Notes: a model not told the origin generated them from the sequence alone. A stretch of 64,000 nucleotides of DNA from Candidatus Nomurabacteria bacterium (GCA_020847275.1 JADLCI010000007.1:27814-91813), one strand, 5' to 3'; positions 6,890 to 64,000 are shown, counted from the first letter of the stretch. A program made the numbers and translations.

Positions 6890-7331
6890 AATATTCATTG
6901 CTGGTACTAGGAAATTAAAATGGAAAAATTTATCTCTACTTGAGCGCGCTTTCGCTTTGGCCCAGAAGGCTCAACCAGAGCTTGTTCTTGATCTTAATAA
7001 CTGGCCTTACGAAGAATTTTTACAGAAAATAGCAGAGGCCTATGCCGTGATTCTTGTCTCACTCGGAGATATTAGTCCTAATTTGGTTTTGGATGCATTA
7101 CGTTTAGGGAAACCGGTTATTTTGACCACAGAAACAGGATTACGGCAGAGGTTGGGGGAGTCAGTAATTTGGGTGAATCCAGAAGACGAGAAAGATATTT
7201 CACAAAAGATCATCTGGTTGTCCGATCCCGAGAATTATCAACACTCTTGCCAACGCGCAAAGATGTTTGATTTGAAGCATTCGTGGTCGGACATTGCCGA
7301 TGAATTTTTAGACCTAGCTAAAGGTTTATGA
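6882..7331 (+). CDS. GT4 glycosyltransferase, C-terminal (donor) half only; split gene, possibly an authentic frameshift or pseudogene
   Basis: KPVILTTETGLRQRLGESVIWVNP is a GT4 C-terminal motif. The ATG at 6882 overlaps the upstream TAA (6887-6889) by 8 nt. The track start is a TTG at 6870. Confidence 0.5.
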   Translation: MAKIFIAGTRKLKWKNLSLLERAFALAQKAQPELVLDLNNWPYEEFLQKIAEAYAVILVSLGDISPNLVLDALRLGKPVILTTETGLRQRLGESVIWVNPEDEKDISQKIIWLSDPENYQHSCQRAKMFDLKHSWSDIADEFLDLAKGL

Positions 7332-8281
7332 AGGTTTTAATGATTTCCACTGATTCAAAAATTTTCGAACCCCTGAGCGAGGTTCGGTTACGGATGATTA
7401 GTCAGGCCGAAAGTTTTGGCAAGCTCACAATTGCGATTATCGGCAAGAAAAGTTTTTTACCACAAGTAATTAACGACAAGCTGACGGTGTTTTCTCTCGG
7501 ACGTCTGGAGTCTTTTTTCTGGTGCCCGATGAGGGATTATGAACTAGTTACGAGTCAAAACCCCTTCGAGCACGGCTTAATTGGCTGGCTGTGGGCCGGG
7601 AAAATAAATGCCAAATTACAGCTTCAGATTCATACAGATTTTCTCAATCCTTATTTTGCCCAGGAGTCTCTTCTGAACAAAATACGGTTGCGACTAGCAA
7701 AGTTTTTATTGCCACGGGCTGACAGCGTTCGAGTTGTTAGCCAGCGAATTGCTGATTCGCTTGTTGGCGCAGGAATCAGATTAAGACAGAAACCGGTGGT
7801 TCAGCCAGTCAAGATTGATCTCGAAAAAATCAAAAATGAACCGATAAAAATAGATTTACATGACAGATATTCGCAGTTTAAGAAAATAGTTTTAATGGCA
7901 TCTCGTCTGACACGAGAAAAAAATATTGACCTAGCCATTCGGGCGATGAATTCGATTATTAAATCAAGGCCTGGCACCGGTCTGGTCATTGTTGGTTCTG
8001 GACCGGAAGAGGGGAGACTAAAACAACTGGTGAAACAACTGAAGCTAGAAAAAAATGTTTTTTTTGAGTCGTGGACCAACAATCTATCGTCTTTTTATAA
8101 AACAGCCGACCTGTTTCTTTTGACTTCATTTTATGAGGGATATGGAAGGACAATTGTGGAAGCAATGGCTTGTGGTTGTGTTGTTGTTTCGACCGACGTT
8201 GGAGTGGCGAGGGAAGTGGGGGCGATTATCTCTGGGGACAACATTACTGACTTGGTGGAGACACTGGAAAAAATATTATGA
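7328..8281 (+). CDS. Glycosyltransferase family 4
   Basis: LTSFYEGYGRTIVEAMACGCVVVSTDVGVAREV is an E-x7-E-type GT4 motif. Confidence 0.8.
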   Translation: MKVLMISTDSKIFEPLSEVRLRMISQAESFGKLTIAIIGKKSFLPQVINDKLTVFSLGRLESFFWCPMRDYELVTSQNPFEHGLIGWLWAGKINAKLQLQIHTDFLNPYFAQESLLNKIRLRLAKFLLPRADSVRVVSQRIADSLVGAGIRLRQKPVVQPVKIDLEKIKNEPIKIDLHDRYSQFKKIVLMASRLTREKNIDLAIRAMNSIIKSRPGTGLVIVGSGPEEGRLKQLVKQLKLEKNVFFESWTNNLSSFYKTADLFLLTSFYEGYGRTIVEAMACGCVVVSTDVGVAREVGAIISGDNITDLVETLEKIL

Positions 8282-10257
8282 AATTACTAATTGTCACGCA
8301 GGTGGTGGATGAGTCGGATTCGATTTTGGGGTTTTTCCACCGTTGGATTGAAGAGTTTTCTAAACATTACGAAAAGGTTACCGTAATTTGTTTGAAAAAA
8401 GGCGAGTACCATCTACCGGTCAATGTCGAGGTGCTAACTCTTGGTAAAGAGGATGGGGCTTCAAGATCCAAGTATCTCTGGCGTTTTTATAAATATATTT
8501 GGAGTGAGCGGAATAATTACGACACGGTATTTGTGCACATGAATCAAGAGTATGTCCTATTGGGTGGTCTTTTCTGGCGTTTTTGGGGTAAACGCGTTCA
8601 TTTGTGGTACACGCACAAGATGGTTAGCGTAAAATTACGTCTGGCCACTCTTCTATCAGACAAGGTCTTCACTGCGTCCGAAGAAAGTTTCAGATTCGAT
8701 ACACCAAAACTACGTATCGCAGGGCATGGCATAGACACAGACTTTTTTTCTCCTGATTCGAGCGTGGTGCGTTCTGATCACGTTCTCTCCGTTGGACGTT
8801 TGATGAAAAGTAAACGCCATGATCTCATCATTCGTGCTGTGGCATTTGCAGGTAAAGAGCTTCGGATCATTGGCGACGGGCCGGAGCGTAAAAATCTTGA
8901 GGCACTCGCCCATATGATTGGGGCAAGGGTTTATTTTCTGGGTGGGCTTAATCAGTCGCAGGTGCGGGATCAATATCAGAAAGCTGCTTTTTTTGTACAC
9001 ACCAGTGAGACCGGAAGCTTGGATAAGGTGACACTTGAAGCCCTTGCGTGTGGCTTATCTGTAGTTACAACAAGTGATGCGTATAGAAATTTTCCAGTAC
9101 GTAAAGTACAGGCAACACCGGAGGCTATTGCCGCGGGGCTGGAAACAACACAAGACGGAAGCGAAAATGCAAAGTTTGTTCGAGAGCACCATAATCTTCG
9201 TCGTTTGATCGTCTATCTATCACGGGAGATGAGTGTATTGGGACCACGTGTCGCTTTTATTTTTACACGATCTCGGAAGGAAATTATACGTGGCGTACAG
9301 ACCGGTCAGTGTGCGGATACGCCCCTTTATGGCATGAATCATATACCCCATGCTGACTATTTTACCTTGGCGTCTAAATCGATGCGCGCCGTGTTTATCA
9401 TTCTGCATCTTTTCCGGTATGACTTTGTTATTGCGCAGGACAATCTCTTACTTGGTTACATTGTTTCTATTTGTTCTCGGACGTTTAATCTTAAGACTCG
9501 GTGGTTGTATGTGGCGATAAATTCTTCCACTCTCATGCGACGACACGCCAAGCATCCGATACGGCTTTTTATCCTTAAAAAGTTTTGGTCGAGTTACTCG
9601 CATATCATCTGCCTTTCTTTCGATCAGCTTAATGATTTTATCCAAATCGGTCTCCCTCAAGCACAACTTTCATTTATTCCATTTGGTGTGGACGCCACTT
9701 TTTTTCAACCTACCGACATTCATCATGATGAAAATTTAATTGTAAGTGTCGGGCGTGACGGTGGCCGTGATTACCGTACACTTTTTTATGTCGCTGGACT
9801 GGTCGGACATCGATTCGTTGTTGTCGCTGGACAGAAAAATATTCCGCATGATGTTTCGATTCCTCCAAATATGTCGATAGTTTATGACCGGAGCATTGTT
9901 GAAGTTCGAGATTTATATACTCGGGCTCGACTCATTGTCGTTGTTTCAAAGGATGCTAGAATTCCGGATGGTTCGGACTGCTCGGGACAGACGGTAATAC
10001 TTGACGCTCTTGCTGCTGGCAAAACCGTAGTTGCAACGCATCGTTCTTGGATTGCGGACTATTTTGTTCCTGGGCGGGATCTTATTGTGGTTGAGCCTGG
10101 TAATTCCGAAGCTGTTGCGACCGCGATTACCACTCTTTGGAACGACGCTGAAAGACGGGGGGAATTATCCGCCTCCGGACGTAACAAGGTGTCTATGTGC
10201 TACACGACAAAAATTTTTGCCACAGCCCTCCTTAAGCTTATGGAATCTATAAAATGA
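8278..10257 (+). CDS. Two-module glycosyltransferase, a fusion of two complete GT4 units
   Basis: N-module motif GSLDKVTLEALACGLSVVTT. C-module motif GQTVILDALAAGKTVVATHRSWIADYF...GRDLIVVEPGN. The ORF is continuous over 659 aa. Confidence 0.7.
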   Translation: MKLLIVTQVVDESDSILGFFHRWIEEFSKHYEKVTVICLKKGEYHLPVNVEVLTLGKEDGASRSKYLWRFYKYIWSERNNYDTVFVHMNQEYVLLGGLFWRFWGKRVHLWYTHKMVSVKLRLATLLSDKVFTASEESFRFDTPKLRIAGHGIDTDFFSPDSSVVRSDHVLSVGRLMKSKRHDLIIRAVAFAGKELRIIGDGPERKNLEALAHMIGARVYFLGGLNQSQVRDQYQKAAFFVHTSETGSLDKVTLEALACGLSVVTTSDAYRNFPVRKVQATPEAIAAGLETTQDGSENAKFVREHHNLRRLIVYLSREMSVLGPRVAFIFTRSRKEIIRGVQTGQCADTPLYGMNHIPHADYFTLASKSMRAVFIILHLFRYDFVIAQDNLLLGYIVSICSRTFNLKTRWLYVAINSSTLMRRHAKHPIRLFILKKFWSSYSHIICLSFDQLNDFIQIGLPQAQLSFIPFGVDATFFQPTDIHHDENLIVSVGRDGGRDYRTLFYVAGLVGHRFVVVAGQKNIPHDVSIPPNMSIVYDRSIVEVRDLYTRARLIVVVSKDARIPDGSDCSGQTVILDALAAGKTVVATHRSWIADYFVPGRDLIVVEPGNSEAVATAITTLWNDAERRGELSASGRNKVSMCYTTKIFATALLKLMESIK

Positions 10258-11753: not shown

Positions 11754-12467
11754 TGACATCAGGCGATAACGAAGTATTTGGAGCACCATCTTAAGGCCAA
11801 TTTTTGCTGCCTTTGCCACACTCTCCCCGGTGTACATTGAGGTACCGATGCGCTCTTTATAGATAACGGGGATCTCTATGGGTTTCCATCCGCGACGTAT
11901 TACCCAGATCATGATCTCAATGGAAAAAGCGTCTTTGCCATCAGATAAGTAAAATAAGTCAAAAATACTGTTGAGAACTCCGCGCGAGAAAAGTTTGTAT
12001 GAGCAACTCACGTCAGTCATACTGGGCCCATTATGTAAAACCTCTAGGAATTTTGCCACGGCCCAGTTACCAAGTCGAACTGGAAATGGCATGAATGCTC
12101 CTGACCAAATAGCGGCACGAGATGTCCGTGTTCCAAAAATAACCTCGAAGTCGTCTGTATACGATAGGAATTTGTGAACGTCTTGTGGTAAAAATGTACC
12201 GTCTCCCTCCACTGTTATAACAAGATCACCAGTGGCTTCGTGTAGCCCGCGCATCATGGCGTTTCCGTATCCTTGATGCTCCCTTTCCTCTACTAACCGT
12301 GCTCTTGTTTGTGCTACTTCCATTTTTGTATTGCCAAGTGCGTTGTTGTCAATTACCACAACCTCATCAACCACACCGGTGTCAAAAAGTCCATTTATGA
12401 CGGCACGGATGCTACCCTCCTCATTGTAAGTCGGGATTATAACACTTACGGTCTTACCTCTGTGCAT
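11700..12467 (-). CDS. GT2 polyprenol-phosphate glycosyltransferase (GtrB/DPM1-like)
   Basis: VSVIIPTYNEEGSI...DEVVVIDNNALGNT...GDLVITVEGDG contains DxD-type GT-A motifs. The gene converges on gtrA-like and the two 3' ends overlap by 54 nt. Confidence 0.8.
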   Translation of the reverse strand: MHRGKTVSVIIPTYNEEGSIRAVINGLFDTGVVDEVVVIDNNALGNTKMEVAQTRARLVEEREHQGYGNAMMRGLHEATGDLVITVEGDGTFLPQDVHKFLSYTDDFEVIFGTRTSRAAIWSGAFMPFPVRLGNWAVAKFLEVLHNGPSMTDVSCSYKLFSRGVLNSIFDLFYLSDGKDAFSIEIMIWVIRRGWKPIEIPVIYKERIGTSMYTGESVAKAAKIGLKMVLQILRYRLMSLRPPKNVETVDKITKER

Positions 12468-58272: not shown

Positions 58273-60072
58273 ATGGATTTATCCCACATCAGAAACTTTT
58301 CAATTATTGCCCATATTGATCACGGCAAGTCTACTCTGGCGGATAGGTTGTTGGAGTTAACGAATACGGTTGAGAAACGTAAGATGCGAGCGCAGGTGTT
58401 GGATATGATGGAGCTTGAACGGGAACGGGGAATTACCATCAAGATGCAACCCGTTCGAATGAAGTATCAAACTGGCGGTGGGGATTATTTATTGAATTTA
58501 ATTGATACGCCCGGGCATATCGACTTCTCCTACGAAGTTTCGCGGGCGCTTCAGGCGGTGGAGGGGGTTCTTCTGCTTGTGGACGCCACTCAGGGTGTGC
58601 AGGCGCAGACTTTCACTGTTTTGAACATGGCTCGTGAGTTCAATCTTGTGATTATTCCAGTAATCAACAAAATTGATTCACCAATCGCCCGGCTTCATGA
58701 GACCGAACAAGAAATCATGGAATTGTTAAAGTGCTCATCGGCGGAAATTTTGCGGGTGTCGGGAAAGACGGGTGAGGGGGTGGGCGAGTTGTTGGAAAAA
58801 ATTGTGACGAGAATTCCTGCGCCCAAAACAGAGTTTGTTGGTAACGATCCTCGTGCCCTAGTTTTTGATTATTCTTACTCAAACCACCAGGGTGTTATTA
58901 TTTACGCCAGAGTGTTTGATGGCGAAATTAGGAGGGGGTCGGAGCTAAGCTTTAGTGCTACGGGTGACAAGTTCGTGGTGCTAGAGGTCGGGTCTTTTTT
59001 ACCGGAGAAGCATTCCCTTGCTAGTTTGGTGGCGGGAGAGATTGGTTATATTGTGACGGGTTTGAAGCGGGCTGGACAGGCTAAGGTGGGTGATACGGTT
59101 ACGAGTGTTTCGCGAGCGCTACCCGCTTTTCCCGGATATCGTGAACCAGAGCCGGTTGTTTGGGCCAGCGTTTATCCCGAGAATGCTGATGATTTTACAT
59201 TACTTCGGCAATCATTGGAGCGGTTACGGCTTTCCGATGCCGCTTTGTCGTTCGTCGAAGAGTCCTCTGGTTCGCTGGGGCGTGGTTTTCGAGCGGGATT
59301 CTTGGGTTTACTACATTTGGAAATTATCGTCGAAAGACTGAAGAGAGAATTTAATCTCACTCTAGTTGTTACCACCCCATCTATTGGTTATGAGGTGAAA
59401 GATTTAGCAACCGGGAAGACAACCTTAATCTACGCGCCGCATCTCTTCCCTGCCGACACACGTGGTTATGAGGTGATGGAGCCGTGGGTCAGCGCTTCCA
59501 TCATTTTGCCACCGAGCTATCTTGGGAATGTCATTAAATTATTTAACAGTCACGAAGTTTTATTACTGACAACCAATAATTTTAGCGAGGATCGTTCGGT
59601 CTTGGAGGTAGAGCTTCCTCTCCGAGAACTGATGAGGCACTTTTTTGATGAGTTGAAAAGTGTCTCATCAGGCTTCGCCTCTTTCTCCTATCAATTATGT
59701 GGGTTACGACGCGCTGAGGTGGTGAGGCTCGATGTTTTGGTCGGGGGCGAGACTGTGGCCCCCTTTGCTCGGGTGGTCTCCCGGGCCAAAATGGAAGAAG
59801 AGGCTAAGGCGGTTGTGGAAAAGTTGTTCAAAGTTTTACCACGTCAATTAATTACGATTAAAATTCAAGCTCAGGCACTGGGACGGATAATTTCCTCACG
59901 GACTATCTCTGCTCTCCGTAAGGATGTGACCGACTATCTATACGGTGGGGATATTACTCGGAAGATGAAATTGCGCGAGAAGCAGAAGAAGGGAAAGAAA
60001 AAAATGCAGAACATTGGCTCGGTGAATATTCCACCAGAAGTTTTCCTTCGGATGGTCGGTTCAGACAAATAG
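58273..60072 (+). CDS. lepA: Elongation factor 4 (LepA)
   Basis: IRNFSIIAHIDHGKSTLADRLL, DTPGHIDFSYEVSR, NKID. LepA-specific C-terminal domain. Confidence 0.95.
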   Translation: MDLSHIRNFSIIAHIDHGKSTLADRLLELTNTVEKRKMRAQVLDMMELERERGITIKMQPVRMKYQTGGGDYLLNLIDTPGHIDFSYEVSRALQAVEGVLLLVDATQGVQAQTFTVLNMAREFNLVIIPVINKIDSPIARLHETEQEIMELLKCSSAEILRVSGKTGEGVGELLEKIVTRIPAPKTEFVGNDPRALVFDYSYSNHQGVIIYARVFDGEIRRGSELSFSATGDKFVVLEVGSFLPEKHSLASLVAGEIGYIVTGLKRAGQAKVGDTVTSVSRALPAFPGYREPEPVVWASVYPENADDFTLLRQSLERLRLSDAALSFVEESSGSLGRGFRAGFLGLLHLEIIVERLKREFNLTLVVTTPSIGYEVKDLATGKTTLIYAPHLFPADTRGYEVMEPWVSASIILPPSYLGNVIKLFNSHEVLLLTTNNFSEDRSVLEVELPLRELMRHFFDELKSVSSGFASFSYQLCGLRRAEVVRLDVLVGGETVAPFARVVSRAKMEEEAKAVVEKLFKVLPRQLITIKIQAQALGRIISSRTISALRKDVTDYLYGGDITRKMKLREKQKKGKKKMQNIGSVNIPPEVFLRMVGSDK

Positions 60073-60192
60073 CGGGGAACTATAAAGTAAGACCATTCCC
60101 AAAATAACAATAATGCCCACTATCGTCCAGACTAGTTGCAATCCTTTTCGATGTCTTTTATTTAAAATCATTTCCAGTTAGTATAAAGCAGA

Positions 60193-60552
60193 ATGATTAA
60201 ACGGCCAAGTAATCTCGGTTGGCGGCGCTGGCTCTATACTCGAGTGTCAATCGTCGCTATTGCACTCGTCGCGCTTCTACTTGGACGGGCGGGCTGGCAA
60301 GTTTTCTGGAAACAGCGCCTGGTGATAAATGATCGGGCGCAGGTGGAGAGCGAGCTCTCGGCGCTAATGGCCCGAGAACAGAAATTGCGGGCGGAAATCG
60401 ACCTCTTAAAAAGCGAGTCAGGGTTAGAGGGGAAGATTCGAGAGAAATTCTCGGTTGTTAAAGAAGGAGAGAAGGTGATTGCAATCGTTGCCAGAGATAA
60501 GGCCACAACAAGCACTACGACGGCGGAGAGGAGGTCGTGGTGGCCTTTTTAG
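60193..60552 (+). CDS. FtsB/DivIC-like septum-formation initiator (single TM plus coiled coil)
   Basis: N-terminal TM VSIVAIALVALLL, then a heptad-rich segment ESELSALMAREQKLRAEIDLLKSE. Confidence 0.55.
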   Translation: MIKRPSNLGWRRWLYTRVSIVAIALVALLLGRAGWQVFWKQRLVINDRAQVESELSALMAREQKLRAEIDLLKSESGLEGKIREKFSVVKEGEKVIAIVARDKATTSTTTAERRSWWPF

Positions 60553-60562
60553 ATCTTTATTT

Positions 60563-60633
60563 GCGGGGTTAGTTCAGTGGCAGAATGAGTGCTTCCCAAG
60601 CATTAGACGCGAGTTCGATTCTCGCATCCCGCA
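60563..60633 (+). tRNA. tRNA-Gly (anticodon CCC)
   Basis: Cloverleaf: acceptor GCGGGGT/ATCCCGC, D-arm GTTC-AGTGGCA-GAAT, anticodon arm AGTGC-TTCCCAA-GCATT, T-arm GCGAG-TTCGATT-CTCGC. No CCA is encoded. Confidence 0.9.
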
Positions 60634-60717
60634 CTTGCAAGTTTAGGATAACCATGTTACTTTCTTGGTAGTCGTTTTTTTGGTGTTTTCGGTGCTTTCA
60701 CGAACAGGAGAAAACAA

Positions 60718-60999
60718 ATGGAATTGAATCGGGATTCAGTCAAGGATACCGTGTTAAAGATTGTCGCTGATCATCTGGGTAAGGATAAAAATATCATTAC
60801 CGAAGAGAGCAATTTTGTCGAAGATCTTGATGCTGATTCTCTGGATACGGTTGAAATCGTCATGTCGTTTGAAGACGAGTTTGAGATTTCCGTTCCTGAC
60901 GAGGAGGCCGAAAAATTGACCACCGTTGGTTCGGTGATTGAGTACATTTGTGTCAGTCTGCGCAAGGCAGAAAATTATGAAAAGGCCGACCCGCCATAG
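60718..60999 (+). CDS. acpP: Acyl carrier protein with a roughly 15-aa C-terminal extension
   Basis: Phosphopantetheine-attachment motif DLDADSLDTVEIVM. AGGAG RBS. Confidence 0.85.
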   Translation: MELNRDSVKDTVLKIVADHLGKDKNIITEESNFVEDLDADSLDTVEIVMSFEDEFEISVPDEEAEKLTTVGSVIEYICVSLRKAENYEKADPP

Positions 61000-61012
61000 G
61001 GCGGCCTTTTTT
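60984..61012 (+). terminator. Rho-independent terminator (GC hairpin plus T6) overlapping the ACP stop
   Basis: GGCCGACCCGCC-ATAG-GGCGGCC followed by TTTTTT. Confidence 0.75.
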
Positions 61013-61055
61013 CTTGCAAAATCAAATTTTTCTGTTAGAATTGGTTTCTTAAATT

Positions 61056-62969
61056 ATGCCCCCCCTTTCTACTAAACCAAACCGTTCACCACGCCAGATT
61101 ATGACTCAATTCGGCGGGCAAATTATCCTGACAATTCTAATTCTGTTTGTTCTTATCGGCGCCTATTCTTCTTTGAAAAATAATGAAACCACAATACGAG
61201 AAGTACCCATCTCCGAATTGGCGAAATCAATTACAGAAGGCGTGGTTACGGAGGTCTCTGTTAGTGGCGATACACTGGAGGCGACGCTTCAGTCGGGCGA
61301 GATGGTAAGGTCCAAGAAAGAAACCGAGACCGCTCTCTCCAGCGCCCTCCAGAATTACGGCGTGACTTCAGATAAGTTGGCCGCGGTAACAGTGAACGTG
61401 AAAGAGCCCAGCGGCCTTTCTTTCTGGGTCGCAAATCTATTACCGTTTCTTATTCCTCTGGTTTTTATCCTTTTTTTGTTTTGGTATATTTCGCGTCAGG
61501 TGAAGGGGGCTTCAATGCAGGCACTCTCTTTCGGCCAGTCGAAGGCGAAGATTATTGACCCGAACGATTCTGGGCAGCGCATCACTTTCAAGGATGTCGC
61601 TGGTGTTCGTGAGGCCAAGGAGGAACTTCTAGAGATTGTCGACTTTTTGAAAAATCCAAAGAAGTTTCTAGATATTGGGGCTCGGATTCCAAAAGGGGTC
61701 CTTTTGATGGGTGCCCCCGGTACTGGTAAAACTTTGCTTGCTCGAGCGGTGGCTGGTGAGGCGCAGGTTCCTTTTCTCTATCTTTCTGGCTCCGACTTCG
61801 TGGAGATGTTTGTGGGTGTTGGTGCTTCTCGGGTGCGTGATTTATTTCGTCTGGCGAAGAAGTTGGCCCCGTCAATTATTTTCATTGATGAAATTGATGC
61901 CATTGGTCGACATCGGGGGAGTGGCATGGGTGGAGGCAACGATGAACGAGAGCAAACCCTTAATCAAATTTTGGTCGAGATGGACGGTTTTGAGCCAAAT
62001 GAGAAATTGATTGTAATGGCGGCCACCAACCGACCGGATGTTCTTGACCCAGCTTTGCTTCGTCCGGGGCGCTTTGATCGACGTGTTGTTCTGGATAATC
62101 CAGACATCCGTGACCGAGAGGAAATTCTTCAAATCTACGCGCGACAGAAACCACTTGGGCCAGATGTTAACTTGCGCATTATTGCTGAGCGGACACCGGG
62201 GTTTTCTGGTGCCGATCTTGCGAACCTAATGAATGAGGGAGCAATTCTGGCGGCCCGGGAGAGTCGTTCGGAGATTACCCAGTTTGATTTAATCAGAAGT
62301 GTGGAGAAGGTGATGCTTGGCCCAGAACGCAAGAGCCACATTCTTTCCATTAAGGAAAAGAAAATTACCGCTTATCACGAAATGGGGCATGCTTTGGTTG
62401 CGAGTGTTCTGCCTGACGCTGACCCGGTTCATAAAGTTTCAATTATTTCTCGTGGGCATGCCGCTGGATATACCCTCAAGCTTCCACTAGAAGATCGCAA
62501 ATTACAGTCGCGCCAGGAATTCTTGGATGATATCGCGATGTCGCTTGGTGGTTACGCCGCCGAGCAGCTCATTTTCGGTGATATTACCACTGGAGCCTCT
62601 AACGATATTGCGGTGTCCACATCTCTGGCCAGAAGCATGGTGACGAAATATGGAATGAGCGATAAACTTGGACCAATCGCTTTTGACTCCGGTGGAAGTA
62701 AAATGTGGTGGGGTGGGGCGACGGGGAGTGAGACTTATTCGTCAGAGACTGTCCAGACGGCCATTGATGGTGAGGTGGCCAAGATTATGACCGAAGCCCT
62801 CACGCGGGCGAAAAAAGTTTTAAACGAAAATCGCAAGGCGCTAGATAAGATGTCGGAGGAGTTAATTAAGGTGGAGACGATTGATCGGGAGGATTTCGAC
62901 AAACTCCTTATCCTCAATGGCATCAAGCCGAAAGTCGCCGATCTCGCCGATGGTGCTAAAATAGGTTAG
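61056..62969 (+). CDS. ftsH: ATP-dependent zinc metalloprotease FtsH
   Basis: Walker [22 protein letters not shown] region. HEMGHAL zinc-binding motif. Confidence 0.95.
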
Positions 62970-62979
62970 CCTCGGCCCG

Positions 62980-63053
62980 GCACGCGTAGCTCAGTTGGTT
63001 AGAGCACCGAGCTTATACCTCGGCGGTCCTTGGTTCGAATCCAAGCGCGTGCA
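62980..63053 (+). tRNA. tRNA-Ile with genomically encoded UAU anticodon
   Basis: Acceptor GCACGCG/CGCGTGC, D-arm GCTC-AGTTGGTTA-GAGC, anticodon arm CCGAG-CTTATAC-CTCGG (U33, TAT at 63014-63016, A37), T-arm CTTGG-TTCGAAT-CCAAG. Confidence 0.82.
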
Positions 63054-63072
63054 CAGAGTCTCTTTTCCCCTA

Positions 63073-63101
63073 TTGACAAACAGTTTCCACTATGCTAGAC
63101 T
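63073..63101 (+). promoter_or_regulatory. Strong sigma70-like promoter TTGACA-17-TAGACT downstream of tRNA-Ile
   Basis: TTGACA at 63073-63078 and TAGACT at 63096-63101. Confidence 0.5.
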
Positions 63102-63256
63102 CTAGCCAGTAGTCCTTTTACACCTAACTTGCATTTCGCCATAGCAGAAAGTGGCTCAACCCAGGGCTATTCTCTGCTGTGGCGAAGAACCCAGCGAACA
63201 ATAAACCAGAGCATGCTGCGTAGTCAGCGAGCTCACAACACGAAAGGACATGCTAT

Positions 63257-63979
63257 ATGAATAGCGAGTTCACACTCAGTCAGGGATCAGGACAGAAACT
63301 GGAGTTTGCCGTTCAGCGTAACGGCGGCACCACCGAAGACATCGAATACTTGAGCACCGGCGACAACTTCCGTGCGGTCTCACTGCTGCGGACAGGGAAA
63401 GCCAAACTCGTCGAAGTCTCCGAGAACGGGTCCGAAGGCGCGGTCATTCCGACTGCTCCGACACTCGTCGAATGGACCACCGACAGCGACGGCATCATCC
63501 ACTTCACGCTCATCTCAAATGGCCTTACCCGCAAACAGTGGGAACGTCACCTCGAAAGCCGTGGCTTCCGTCTCTCCGATTGGGCTCGCAATGTGCTCCG
63601 TCGCGCGAGCGAAGCTCCGACCAACGGCGTGGCCTATCACATCGTCGTTCGCCCCGGCAGCAAGATCGCTTCACGCAATCGCGTCACGAAGAAGATTCGT
63701 GCTCACGCTGCCGACAAGGGCTGGAAGACTCCCCATTGGGAAGTCGCTTGCCTCATCCGCGATAGGTTCTCGGATGAACAGCTCGAGAAGATGGGACTGT
63801 GGTGGATCGTCACCATGCACGAACCCATCACTGATTCCGACGGCGATCCGTACTTGCTCTACTCCTGCCGGCTCGCTGGTGGTCGTTGGCTCTTCGCCCA
63901 CTATTTCAGGCCTGACGTCGAGTGGGATGCCCCCGGTGGGTTTGCGTTCGTTGTCTCGCAAGTCAGTCCTCAAACCTAA
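63257..63979 (+). CDS. Hypothetical protein, GC-rich (about 58 to 60 %), likely horizontally acquired
   Basis: 240-aa ORF with codon usage and GC clearly different from the rest of the window. It lies directly downstream of a tRNA gene with its own promoter and a long structured 5' UTR. Confidence 0.55.
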   Translation: MNSEFTLSQGSGQKLEFAVQRNGGTTEDIEYLSTGDNFRAVSLLRTGKAKLVEVSENGSEGAVIPTAPTLVEWTTDSDGIIHFTLISNGLTRKQWERHLESRGFRLSDWARNVLRRASEAPTNGVAYHIVVRPGSKIASRNRVTKKIRAHAADKGWKTPHWEVACLIRDRFSDEQLEKMGLWWIVTMHEPITDSDGDPYLLYSCRLAGGRWLFAHYFRPDVEWDAPGGFAFVVSQVSPQT

Positions 63980-64000
63980 GCAACTTTGGACTCCGGTCCT

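Follow-up and report, generated by a model that had tools for sequence, protein, structure and literature searches.

What is the GC-rich gene that stands in the last thousand bases of a 64,000-nt stretch of Candidatus Nomurabacteria DNA (GCA_020847275.1, JADLCI010000007.1:27814-91813; hereafter the window), shortly downstream of a tRNA-Ile gene? A sequence-only reading of the region had described a tRNA, a promoter, a leader with a hairpin, an open reading frame (ORF) and its stop codon, all of which we found where it had placed them; it took the compositional jump beside the tRNA for the hallmark of an integrated island or prophage edge. Our analysis points elsewhere: the ORF very probably encodes the variable protein, or target, of a cellular diversity-generating retroelement (DGR), of a type restricted to Patescibacteria, also called the Candidate Phyla Radiation (CPR). 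For CPR bacteria it is an ordinary DGR target, of a kind already known.

The gene (63257-63979, plus strand) starts with ATG, encodes 240 amino acids and ends with TAA at 63977-63979. Its product has no match in Pfam, PHROGs or NCBIfam, and a Pfam search with 96 family members returned only noise. The profile libraries are thus as silent as the statement that the ORF belongs to no recognisable family would imply, but the remote homology search proposed along with that statement exposed a DGR context. A protein search recovered 189 homologues with 49-87% identity, and all those with a source name belong to Patescibacteria lineages; one identical protein, IT398_01810, comes from a Candidatus Nomurabacteria metagenome-assembled genome. 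In the neighbourhoods of two homologues, genes for bAvd and for an RVT_1 reverse transcriptase (RT) lie directly downstream of the target. In both of these loci, L001 and L003, the last ~128 nt of the ORF (the variable region, VR) are repeated 463-464 nt after the VR start, as a template repeat (TR), and every mismatch between the two copies falls on a TR adenine (19/19 in L001 and 13/13 in L003). We then surveyed 79 loci from one-genome-per-species contigs. A downstream TR copy was detected in 41 of them, with 665 of 712 mismatches (93%) at TR adenines. Because the VR/TR mismatches of the homologues sit on the adenines of a downstream copy, we identify the target gene as encoding a DGR variable protein.

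The cassettes of the relatives share one order: target (plus strand), hairpin, terminator, a promoter-like TTGCAT..TATACT, ~230 nt, TR (plus), avd (minus) and RT (plus). The RT genes are RVT_1 ORFs of 333-345 aa. Avd belongs to bAvd (PF22296) and matches NF033474 (DivGenRetAVD) at E = 4.4e-17, below the curated cut-off of that model; its gene lies antisense, just after the TR. The promoter-like site ahead of the TR has a 17-nt spacer (TTGCAT-17-TATACT) and is followed by ~230 nt of conserved sequence (L004 6790-7041; L163 1690-1933), so the TR transcript has a leader of its own; Rfam gave no match at E <= 1 over the whole L004 cassette. This gene arrangement is probably B3 of Wu et al. 2018 (PMC5758913).

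For the window itself the adenine test is indirect, with the TRs of relatives as reference, whereas in the relatives it is direct. The VR of the window gene (63834-63961, plus strand, codons ~193-235) aligns to the TRs of related loci. For the closest relative with available DNA, L163, nucleotide identity is 91-92% over the span between 63168 and the window's final base, which takes in 39 nt after the VR (the 92% figure applies outside the VR), and the two 3' flanks match without a difference across the post-VR hairpin and up to that final base. Of the 25 mismatches between the window VR and the L163 TR, 20 fall among the 33 TR adenines and five among the 95 remaining bases (Fisher p = 1.4e-10); those five are at the level predicted by the ordinary 8% divergence. 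When only the columns invariant in nine related TRs are considered, the window VR is changed at 14 of 23 adenines and at 4 of 61 other bases. The gene might otherwise be an ordinary conserved hypothetical gene from a GC-rich donor, with no link to a retroelement, as its atypical composition and lack of any profile-library match would allow, but the adenine-specific pattern in the relatives and in the window VR, the Avd and RT neighbours of the relatives and a GC excess that is family-wide across hosts of 28-56% GC, and hence not the trace of one donor, make this extremely improbable.

Read in frame, the VR contains ~22 diversifiable codons, ten of them templated by AAY (AAC or AAT), which corresponds to a potential ~1e19 protein variants. 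Protein alignments show a strongly conserved body and a C-terminal stretch of 45 residues that varies at discrete positions between invariant ones, with the pattern ..LL.S.R...GRWL.A.Y.RP...W...GGFAF.V. In the structural model, the C-terminal domain is predicted to adopt a C-type-lectin (CLec) fold, and the VR maps to this domain, which resembles CLec and formylglycine-generating enzyme (FGE) domains; with moderate confidence, the model makes the protein a divergent CLec-fold variable protein. A Foldseek search against the PDB found nothing, and a family profile run against PDB sequences matched only weakly, the repeated immunoglobulin-like domains of 9ncf chain S aligning to residues 63-133 (E = 1.5e-4), a segment that may form a small beta domain distinct from the CLec domain. 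The protein has neither a hydrophobic segment nor a signal peptide-like N-terminus. CPR DGRs form a cellular clade whose targets are without recognisable domains or membrane domains, and unrecognised CLec variants have been predicted among these targets (Roux et al. 2021, PMC8144416).

Two further elements of a DGR target lie at the 3' end of the gene. The last part of the VR (63935-63961, plus strand) matches the adenine-free stretch of related TRs (ending in GGTGGGTTTGCGTTCGTTGTCTCGC, then AA) and resembles an initiation of mutagenic homing (IMH) sequence. In the related TRs, the ~25 nt ahead of this AA contain no adenine and are identical between VR and TR, and the similarity stops at ...CGCAA (63961); this segment is a putative IMH-like invariant homology for cDNA integration. 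The second element is a hairpin, GGAC-TCCG-GTCC (63988-63999, plus strand), which begins 26 nt past the end of VR/TR similarity and 8 nt past the stop codon, and is kept in most related loci as GGAC-TTCG/TCCG-GTCC or GGGAC-TTCA-GTCCC. Efficient retrohoming of phage DGRs depends on an inverted repeat that has a 4-nt loop and lies 4-34 bp past the VR (PMC3240598). The position of the hairpin in the window fits that range, and the hairpin is a candidate target-recognition hairpin or cruciform.

Several observations weigh against identifying the gene as a DGR target. No TR, RT or Avd is present anywhere in the 64-kb window; among related loci for which over 5 kb of sequence follows the gene, roughly one in two has no TR for its VR nearby; and the post-VR hairpin, with four pairs and a non-GRNA loop, is unlike the phage DGR consensus. 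Loci without a nearby TR mean that remote or orphan targets exist, and the window gene could be one of them, its VR having been diversified in the past or in trans by an RT encoded elsewhere or since lost. Many related loci (e.g. L012, L020, L040, L054 and L060) indeed lack a matching TR within ~6 kb and yet keep the post-VR hairpin, two such targets (L054 and L061) occur on one contig, and in L019 a single RT is accompanied by two different targets. Nevertheless, a TR begins 463-464 nt after the VR start in each of the closest relatives whose sequence extends far enough (L163, L004/L001, L005 and L006; 79-87% amino acid identity), and the identity of the window's 3' flank to L163 persists up to its last base, which makes an orphan target quite unlikely here. 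By analogy with these relatives, we expect a TR near 64298, with avd and RT, beyond base 64000. The two targets on one contig (CAYRZH010000003.1) are ~32 kb apart, neither has a matching TR within 6 kb and at least L054 keeps the hairpin; they are candidate remote targets diversified in trans.

How, then, is the jump in GC content to be explained? A composition scan of the kind proposed with the sequence-only reading reproduced it: GC content is 0.584 in the target ORF and 0.451 elsewhere in the window, it climbs sharply at ~63300, and 200-nt windows from 63300 on range from 0.585 to 0.60. GC content at third codon positions (GC3) is 0.69 in the target ORF and 0.43 +/- 0.04 (maximum 0.53) in the other 50 long ORFs of the window; third-position C reaches 0.46, compared with at most 0.25 in those ORFs, and in third-position composition the gene is an outlier by 6-7 standard deviations among the long ORFs. 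The same excess characterizes the family. In 79 of 79 loci the target gene is GC-richer than its flanks (mean 0.579 vs 0.447, in hosts of 0.28-0.56), and in 33 complete cassettes the target averages 0.573, avd plus RT 0.406 and the flanks 0.441. When 41 cassettes were averaged, the excess spanned the ~700-nt target ORF (0.56-0.61) and in part the TR (0.50-0.53), and avd and RT, at 0.38-0.43, were equal to or below the flanks.

The excess is synonymous and uniform along the gene. Family GC3 is 0.685, with third positions composed of C 0.40, G 0.28, T 0.19 and A 0.12, and the C-ending bias is found in the target only, with GC3 values of ~0.35-0.45 in the avd and RT of the same cassettes and in host genes. 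The second, unrelated target of L019 likewise has a GC3 of 0.66, against 0.35 for the RT of that cassette. Since the excess is confined to the target ORF in the relatives, the GC jump belongs to the target gene itself and is not the signature of an island; no compositional deviation runs across an inserted element in the relatives, and the argument from composition to an island does not hold. Translational selection, biased gene conversion or separate mobility of the target may underlie the bias. Avoidance of adenines was considered as a cause and rejected: sense-strand A and T are about equally frequent (152 vs 146), and T is depleted at third positions like A.

With composition set aside, what remains of an island is the location. 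The gene could mark the edge of an island or integrative element at the 3' end of tRNA-Ile, with the DGR as cargo; such an element is compatible with the gene being a DGR target and competes with it only over the GC jump and the location. The cassette does occur in unrelated contexts: after tRNA-Ile and an FtsH gene in the window, in the interval between pseudouridine synthase and IleRS genes in L003, and with a serine recombinase, a transposase and a restriction-modification system in L001. Similarity among the cassettes starts at the -35 box, 19 nt past the tRNA. Proximity to a tRNA also recurs. At least nine loci, drawn from several CPR lineages, have a co-oriented tRNA-His(GTG) gene no more than 5 kb upstream (L004 1329-1403, L084 616-687, L037 5581-5655, L039 4881-4954, L040 4485-4557, L041 5230-5304, L056 3610-3681, L067 4303-4375 and L071 5062-5133), often preceded by tRNA-Leu(GAG) or tRNA-Arg(TCT), and two more loci (L025 and L034) have other tRNAs within 1 kb. 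In L037 the target promoter follows the tRNA within ~40 nt, as in the window, and in L004 a large serine recombinase abuts tRNA-His. These neighbourhoods suggest that the region downstream of tRNA-His is a conserved hot spot for variable DNA.

In L041, 19-20-nt direct repeats of the tRNA-His 3' end (ATTCCCGTTGGCCACCCCA) stand directly after the DGR RT and again after a Fic and archaeo-eukaryotic primase (AEP) module. The repeats (8954-8972 and 12038-12057, with partial copies at 8760-8773 and 11833-11857) each have the same preceding 40 nt and delimit two modules, the first being the DGR and the second a Fic/helix-turn-helix gene with an AEP-primase (TOTE) fragment; no integrase was found in the stretch examined. 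Other evidence counts against such an element. The anomalous GC is limited to the target ORF and its synonymous sites, with avd and RT of the same cassettes at or below host GC; the window holds no integrase and no attachment (att) repeat, and the 3' end of its tRNA-Ile (GGTTCGAATCCAAGCGCGTGCAC) has no second copy within the 64 kb; L037, despite the same layout from tRNA to promoter, shows no att-like repeat within 5 kb downstream; and the association of the relatives is with tRNA-His, not tRNA-Ile. Neither IMG/VR (2.9 million contigs) nor the GenBank phage genomes (50,697 records) contained a relative, and PHROG gave no match to the target protein, so that a prophage edge finds no support; the lack of viral relatives fits the cellular CPR clade of Roux et al. 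A tRNA-linked integrative module at this locus is thus plausible but rather unlikely: the varied contexts and recurring tRNA adjacency speak for it, and the compositional argument that first prompted it does not.

The gene carries a conserved expression region. A sigma-70-type promoter (63073-63101, plus strand) combines a -35 box TTGACA (63073-63078), a 17-nt spacer and a TG-extended -10 box TAGACT (63096-63101), matching the consensus at 10 of 12 positions, and is the best site in a consensus scan of 60000-64000. Promoter-like sites also turn up by chance (6 found vs 3.2 expected), and the call rests on conservation: a match of at least 9/12 is present in 67 of 69 related loci, with the -10 box ending ~31 nt before the first leader hairpin. 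The Shine-Dalgarno (SD) region GAAAGGA with the start codon (63242-63259, ATG at 63257-63259, plus strand) is nearly invariant in 11 to 22 relatives.

Between promoter and start codon lies a leader RNA whose structure is real and conserved. The 14-bp hairpin described from the sequence, TTCGCCATAGCAGA...TCTGCTGTGGCGAA, proved to be the base of a longer helix, P1 (63134-63187, plus strand), with 23 pairs, G.U pairs among them, and a conserved A/C internal mismatch. A second hairpin, P2 (GAGC-A-UGCUG ... CAGCG-A-GCUC, 63209-63234, plus strand), is found in all close relatives, even those without the P1 5' arm, and shows a compensatory change from U-A to C-G at one pair in 6 of 13 sequences. The predicted fold of the 163-nt leader has a free energy of -62.2 kcal/mol (z = -6.7), and none of 200 shuffled sequences was as stable. 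Across 13 full-length leaders, 29 consensus pairs are 97% paired and 12 of the 29 have compensatory double changes; none of 500 shuffles reached the observed covariation, and slid controls gave 37-47% pairing. P1, sought with a strict pattern, occurs upstream in 81 of 147 loci; a comparison of 69 unique sequences shows 95% pairing across its 21 consensus pairs, 16 of which have compensatory changes, and one pair, for instance, is C-G in 25, G-C in 21, A-U in 13 and U-A in 4. A covariance model scored the window leader at 127 bits and detected copies before distant family members that align over residues 76-240 only, and also before the different target gene in L019. No relevant match to the window leader or to a distant copy was found in Rfam 15 at E <= 10.

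The conserved G.U pairs make P1 strand-specific and therefore an RNA structure; a DNA operator or cruciform is unlikely on the same ground, and minus-strand scores of the covariance model are far lower. A third helix, P0, would join a 5' box, GUCCUUUU (63112-63119, plus strand), to the SD region GAAAGGAC (63242-63249), enclosing P1 and P2. It appears in both the minimum free energy (MFE) and the centroid fold of the window leader, and a conserved box (GUUCUUUGAUA..ACUUGCGA-like) lies between the -10 box and P1 in most loci. The P0 pairing is part of the MFE fold in only 25 of 63 loci, and in other loci a CCUCC-containing hairpin adjoins the SD; P0 is best described as a candidate anti-SD pairing. 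An alternative pairing of the P2 palindrome GCAUGC with CAUGCU by the start codon was discarded on inspection, the changed sequence of relatives being uncompensated. A small hairpin, GCUAU-AUGA-AUAGC (63252-63265), has the start codon in its loop, and its sequence is kept in the closest relatives. Published RT-associated motifs lie near RT genes, not before targets (Weinberg et al., PMC5737381). Our preferred reading is that the leader would control translation or mRNA stability.

In locus L019 a second leader copy (7114-7287) precedes a different 193-aa gene (7283-7864; = L095) with a W/D/Y-rich C-terminus, which sits between the first target, apparently frameshifted, and the RT (8750-9751); the locus looks like a single DGR that serves two unrelated targets, both preceded by the leader. 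It is possible, and we propose it tentatively, that the leader is a hitherto undescribed cis-acting RNA class specific to CPR DGR targets and that, together with the C-ending codon bias restricted to the target, it reflects selection at the nucleic-acid level linked to the retroelement. Equally tentative is the set of parts that would define such a class, namely the 5' box, P1 with its A/C internal mismatch and hairpins at the ribosome-binding site, placed before at least two unrelated target families. If this were so, the selection acting on the target mRNA or gene might stem from control of expression or from a part that the target transcript plays in retrohoming.

These elements suggest how the system might work, by a mechanism that is established for DGRs generally and that we extend to this locus. 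The downstream TR would be transcribed, and the DGR reverse transcriptase with Avd would copy it into cDNA, misincorporating opposite template adenines. At the gene's 3' end the cDNA would then take the place of the VR (63834-63961), presumably guided by the hairpin past the stop codon and by the adenine-free 3' end of the repeat, and ~22 codons on the ligand-binding face of the CLec-fold domain would be rewritten on a constant scaffold. The target side is complete in the window, from the promoter and structured leader through ORF and VR to the hairpin; the donor side, consisting of a terminator, a TR ~464 nt downstream of the VR start, a minus-strand avd and RT, is predicted just past base 64000. 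Most likely, expression of the variable protein is both set and gated through the conserved promoter and leader (P0/P1/P2), with the CU-rich 5' box predicted to pair with the SD sequence.

Upstream of the cassette, the tRNA-Ile(TAT) gene (62980-63054, plus strand) was called by ARAGORN and by Rfam (RF00005 tRNA, 73.6 bits). It lies outside the retroelement itself and is a possible attachment site. Its anticodon is TAT (UAU), where the bacterial norm is CAT plus lysidine. A sub-threshold Rfam hit, 'Plastid-ycf2', antisense to the tRNA was dismissed as an artefact of tRNA similarity. Ten nucleotides before the tRNA ends a 637-aa FtsH-type ORF (61056-62969), whose translation contains a Walker A motif, GAPGTGKT, and a zinc motif, HEMGHA. 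In the window, 47 of 51 long ORFs are on the plus strand and the cumulative GC skew climbs steadily (1-63000), which suggests one long co-oriented block on the leading strand.

The locus illustrates that a DGR target can be recognised from the target side alone, even if the sequence stops short of the reverse transcriptase, and that a local GC jump need not indicate an island. The leader RNA offers a handle on the control of hypervariable-protein expression in unculturable organisms, and the synonymous bias restricted to targets, with the repeated placement downstream of tRNA-His and the repeats of the tRNA end, bears on the mobility and maintenance of the cassettes. Three features, namely the leader RNA, the codon bias peculiar to targets and the link to tRNA-His, may be new, as no description of them was found in the accessible DGR literature, which did not include Paul et al. 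2017.

Among known systems, tRNA-linked islands share the site directly 3' of a tRNA and, in relatives, the L041 repeats and the L004 serine recombinase; they differ in that here the compositional deviation does not span the element and the window contains no integrase or repeat. Leaders that sequester the SD sequence (fourU and ROSE thermometers, ribosomal-protein leaders) resemble ours in having a U/C-rich stretch predicted to pair with the SD and hairpins between that stretch and the start codon, but ours has no Rfam match and its long-range anti-SD pairing is predicted in only 25/63 loci. The TvpA protein of Treponema denticola and other FGE-type CLec proteins carry their VR in a C-terminal CLec/FGE-like fold, as is predicted here, and we take the motif ...GG.W......R.......GGFAF.V to be akin to the GFR..-type endings of these proteins. 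Like the DGR of Bordetella phage BPP-1 (Mtd, TR, Avd and bRT), the family shows adenine mutagenesis from TR to VR; its VR lies at the 3' end of a gene for a protein of predicted CLec fold, its TR contains AAY codons, the 3' end of the repeat does not vary, and a 4-nt-loop inverted repeat follows soon after the VR. The BPP-1 element is phage-borne and ours cellular, its hairpin has 7-10 bp and a GRNA loop where ours has 4-5 bp and TTCG, TCCG or TTCA, and the target here is not a tail fibre and is without a known partner. The closest likeness is to the cellular DGRs of the same host group, the 'CPR set' of Wu et al. 2018 (PMC5758913) and DGR clade 2 of Roux et al. 2021 (PMC8144416). These have a small, domain-less target with a C-terminal VR and no membrane anchor, as here; an adjacent TR, Avd and adenine-specific mismatches, as in the relatives; and, in some genomes, multiple or remote targets. 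Nothing essential sets the present gene apart from them.

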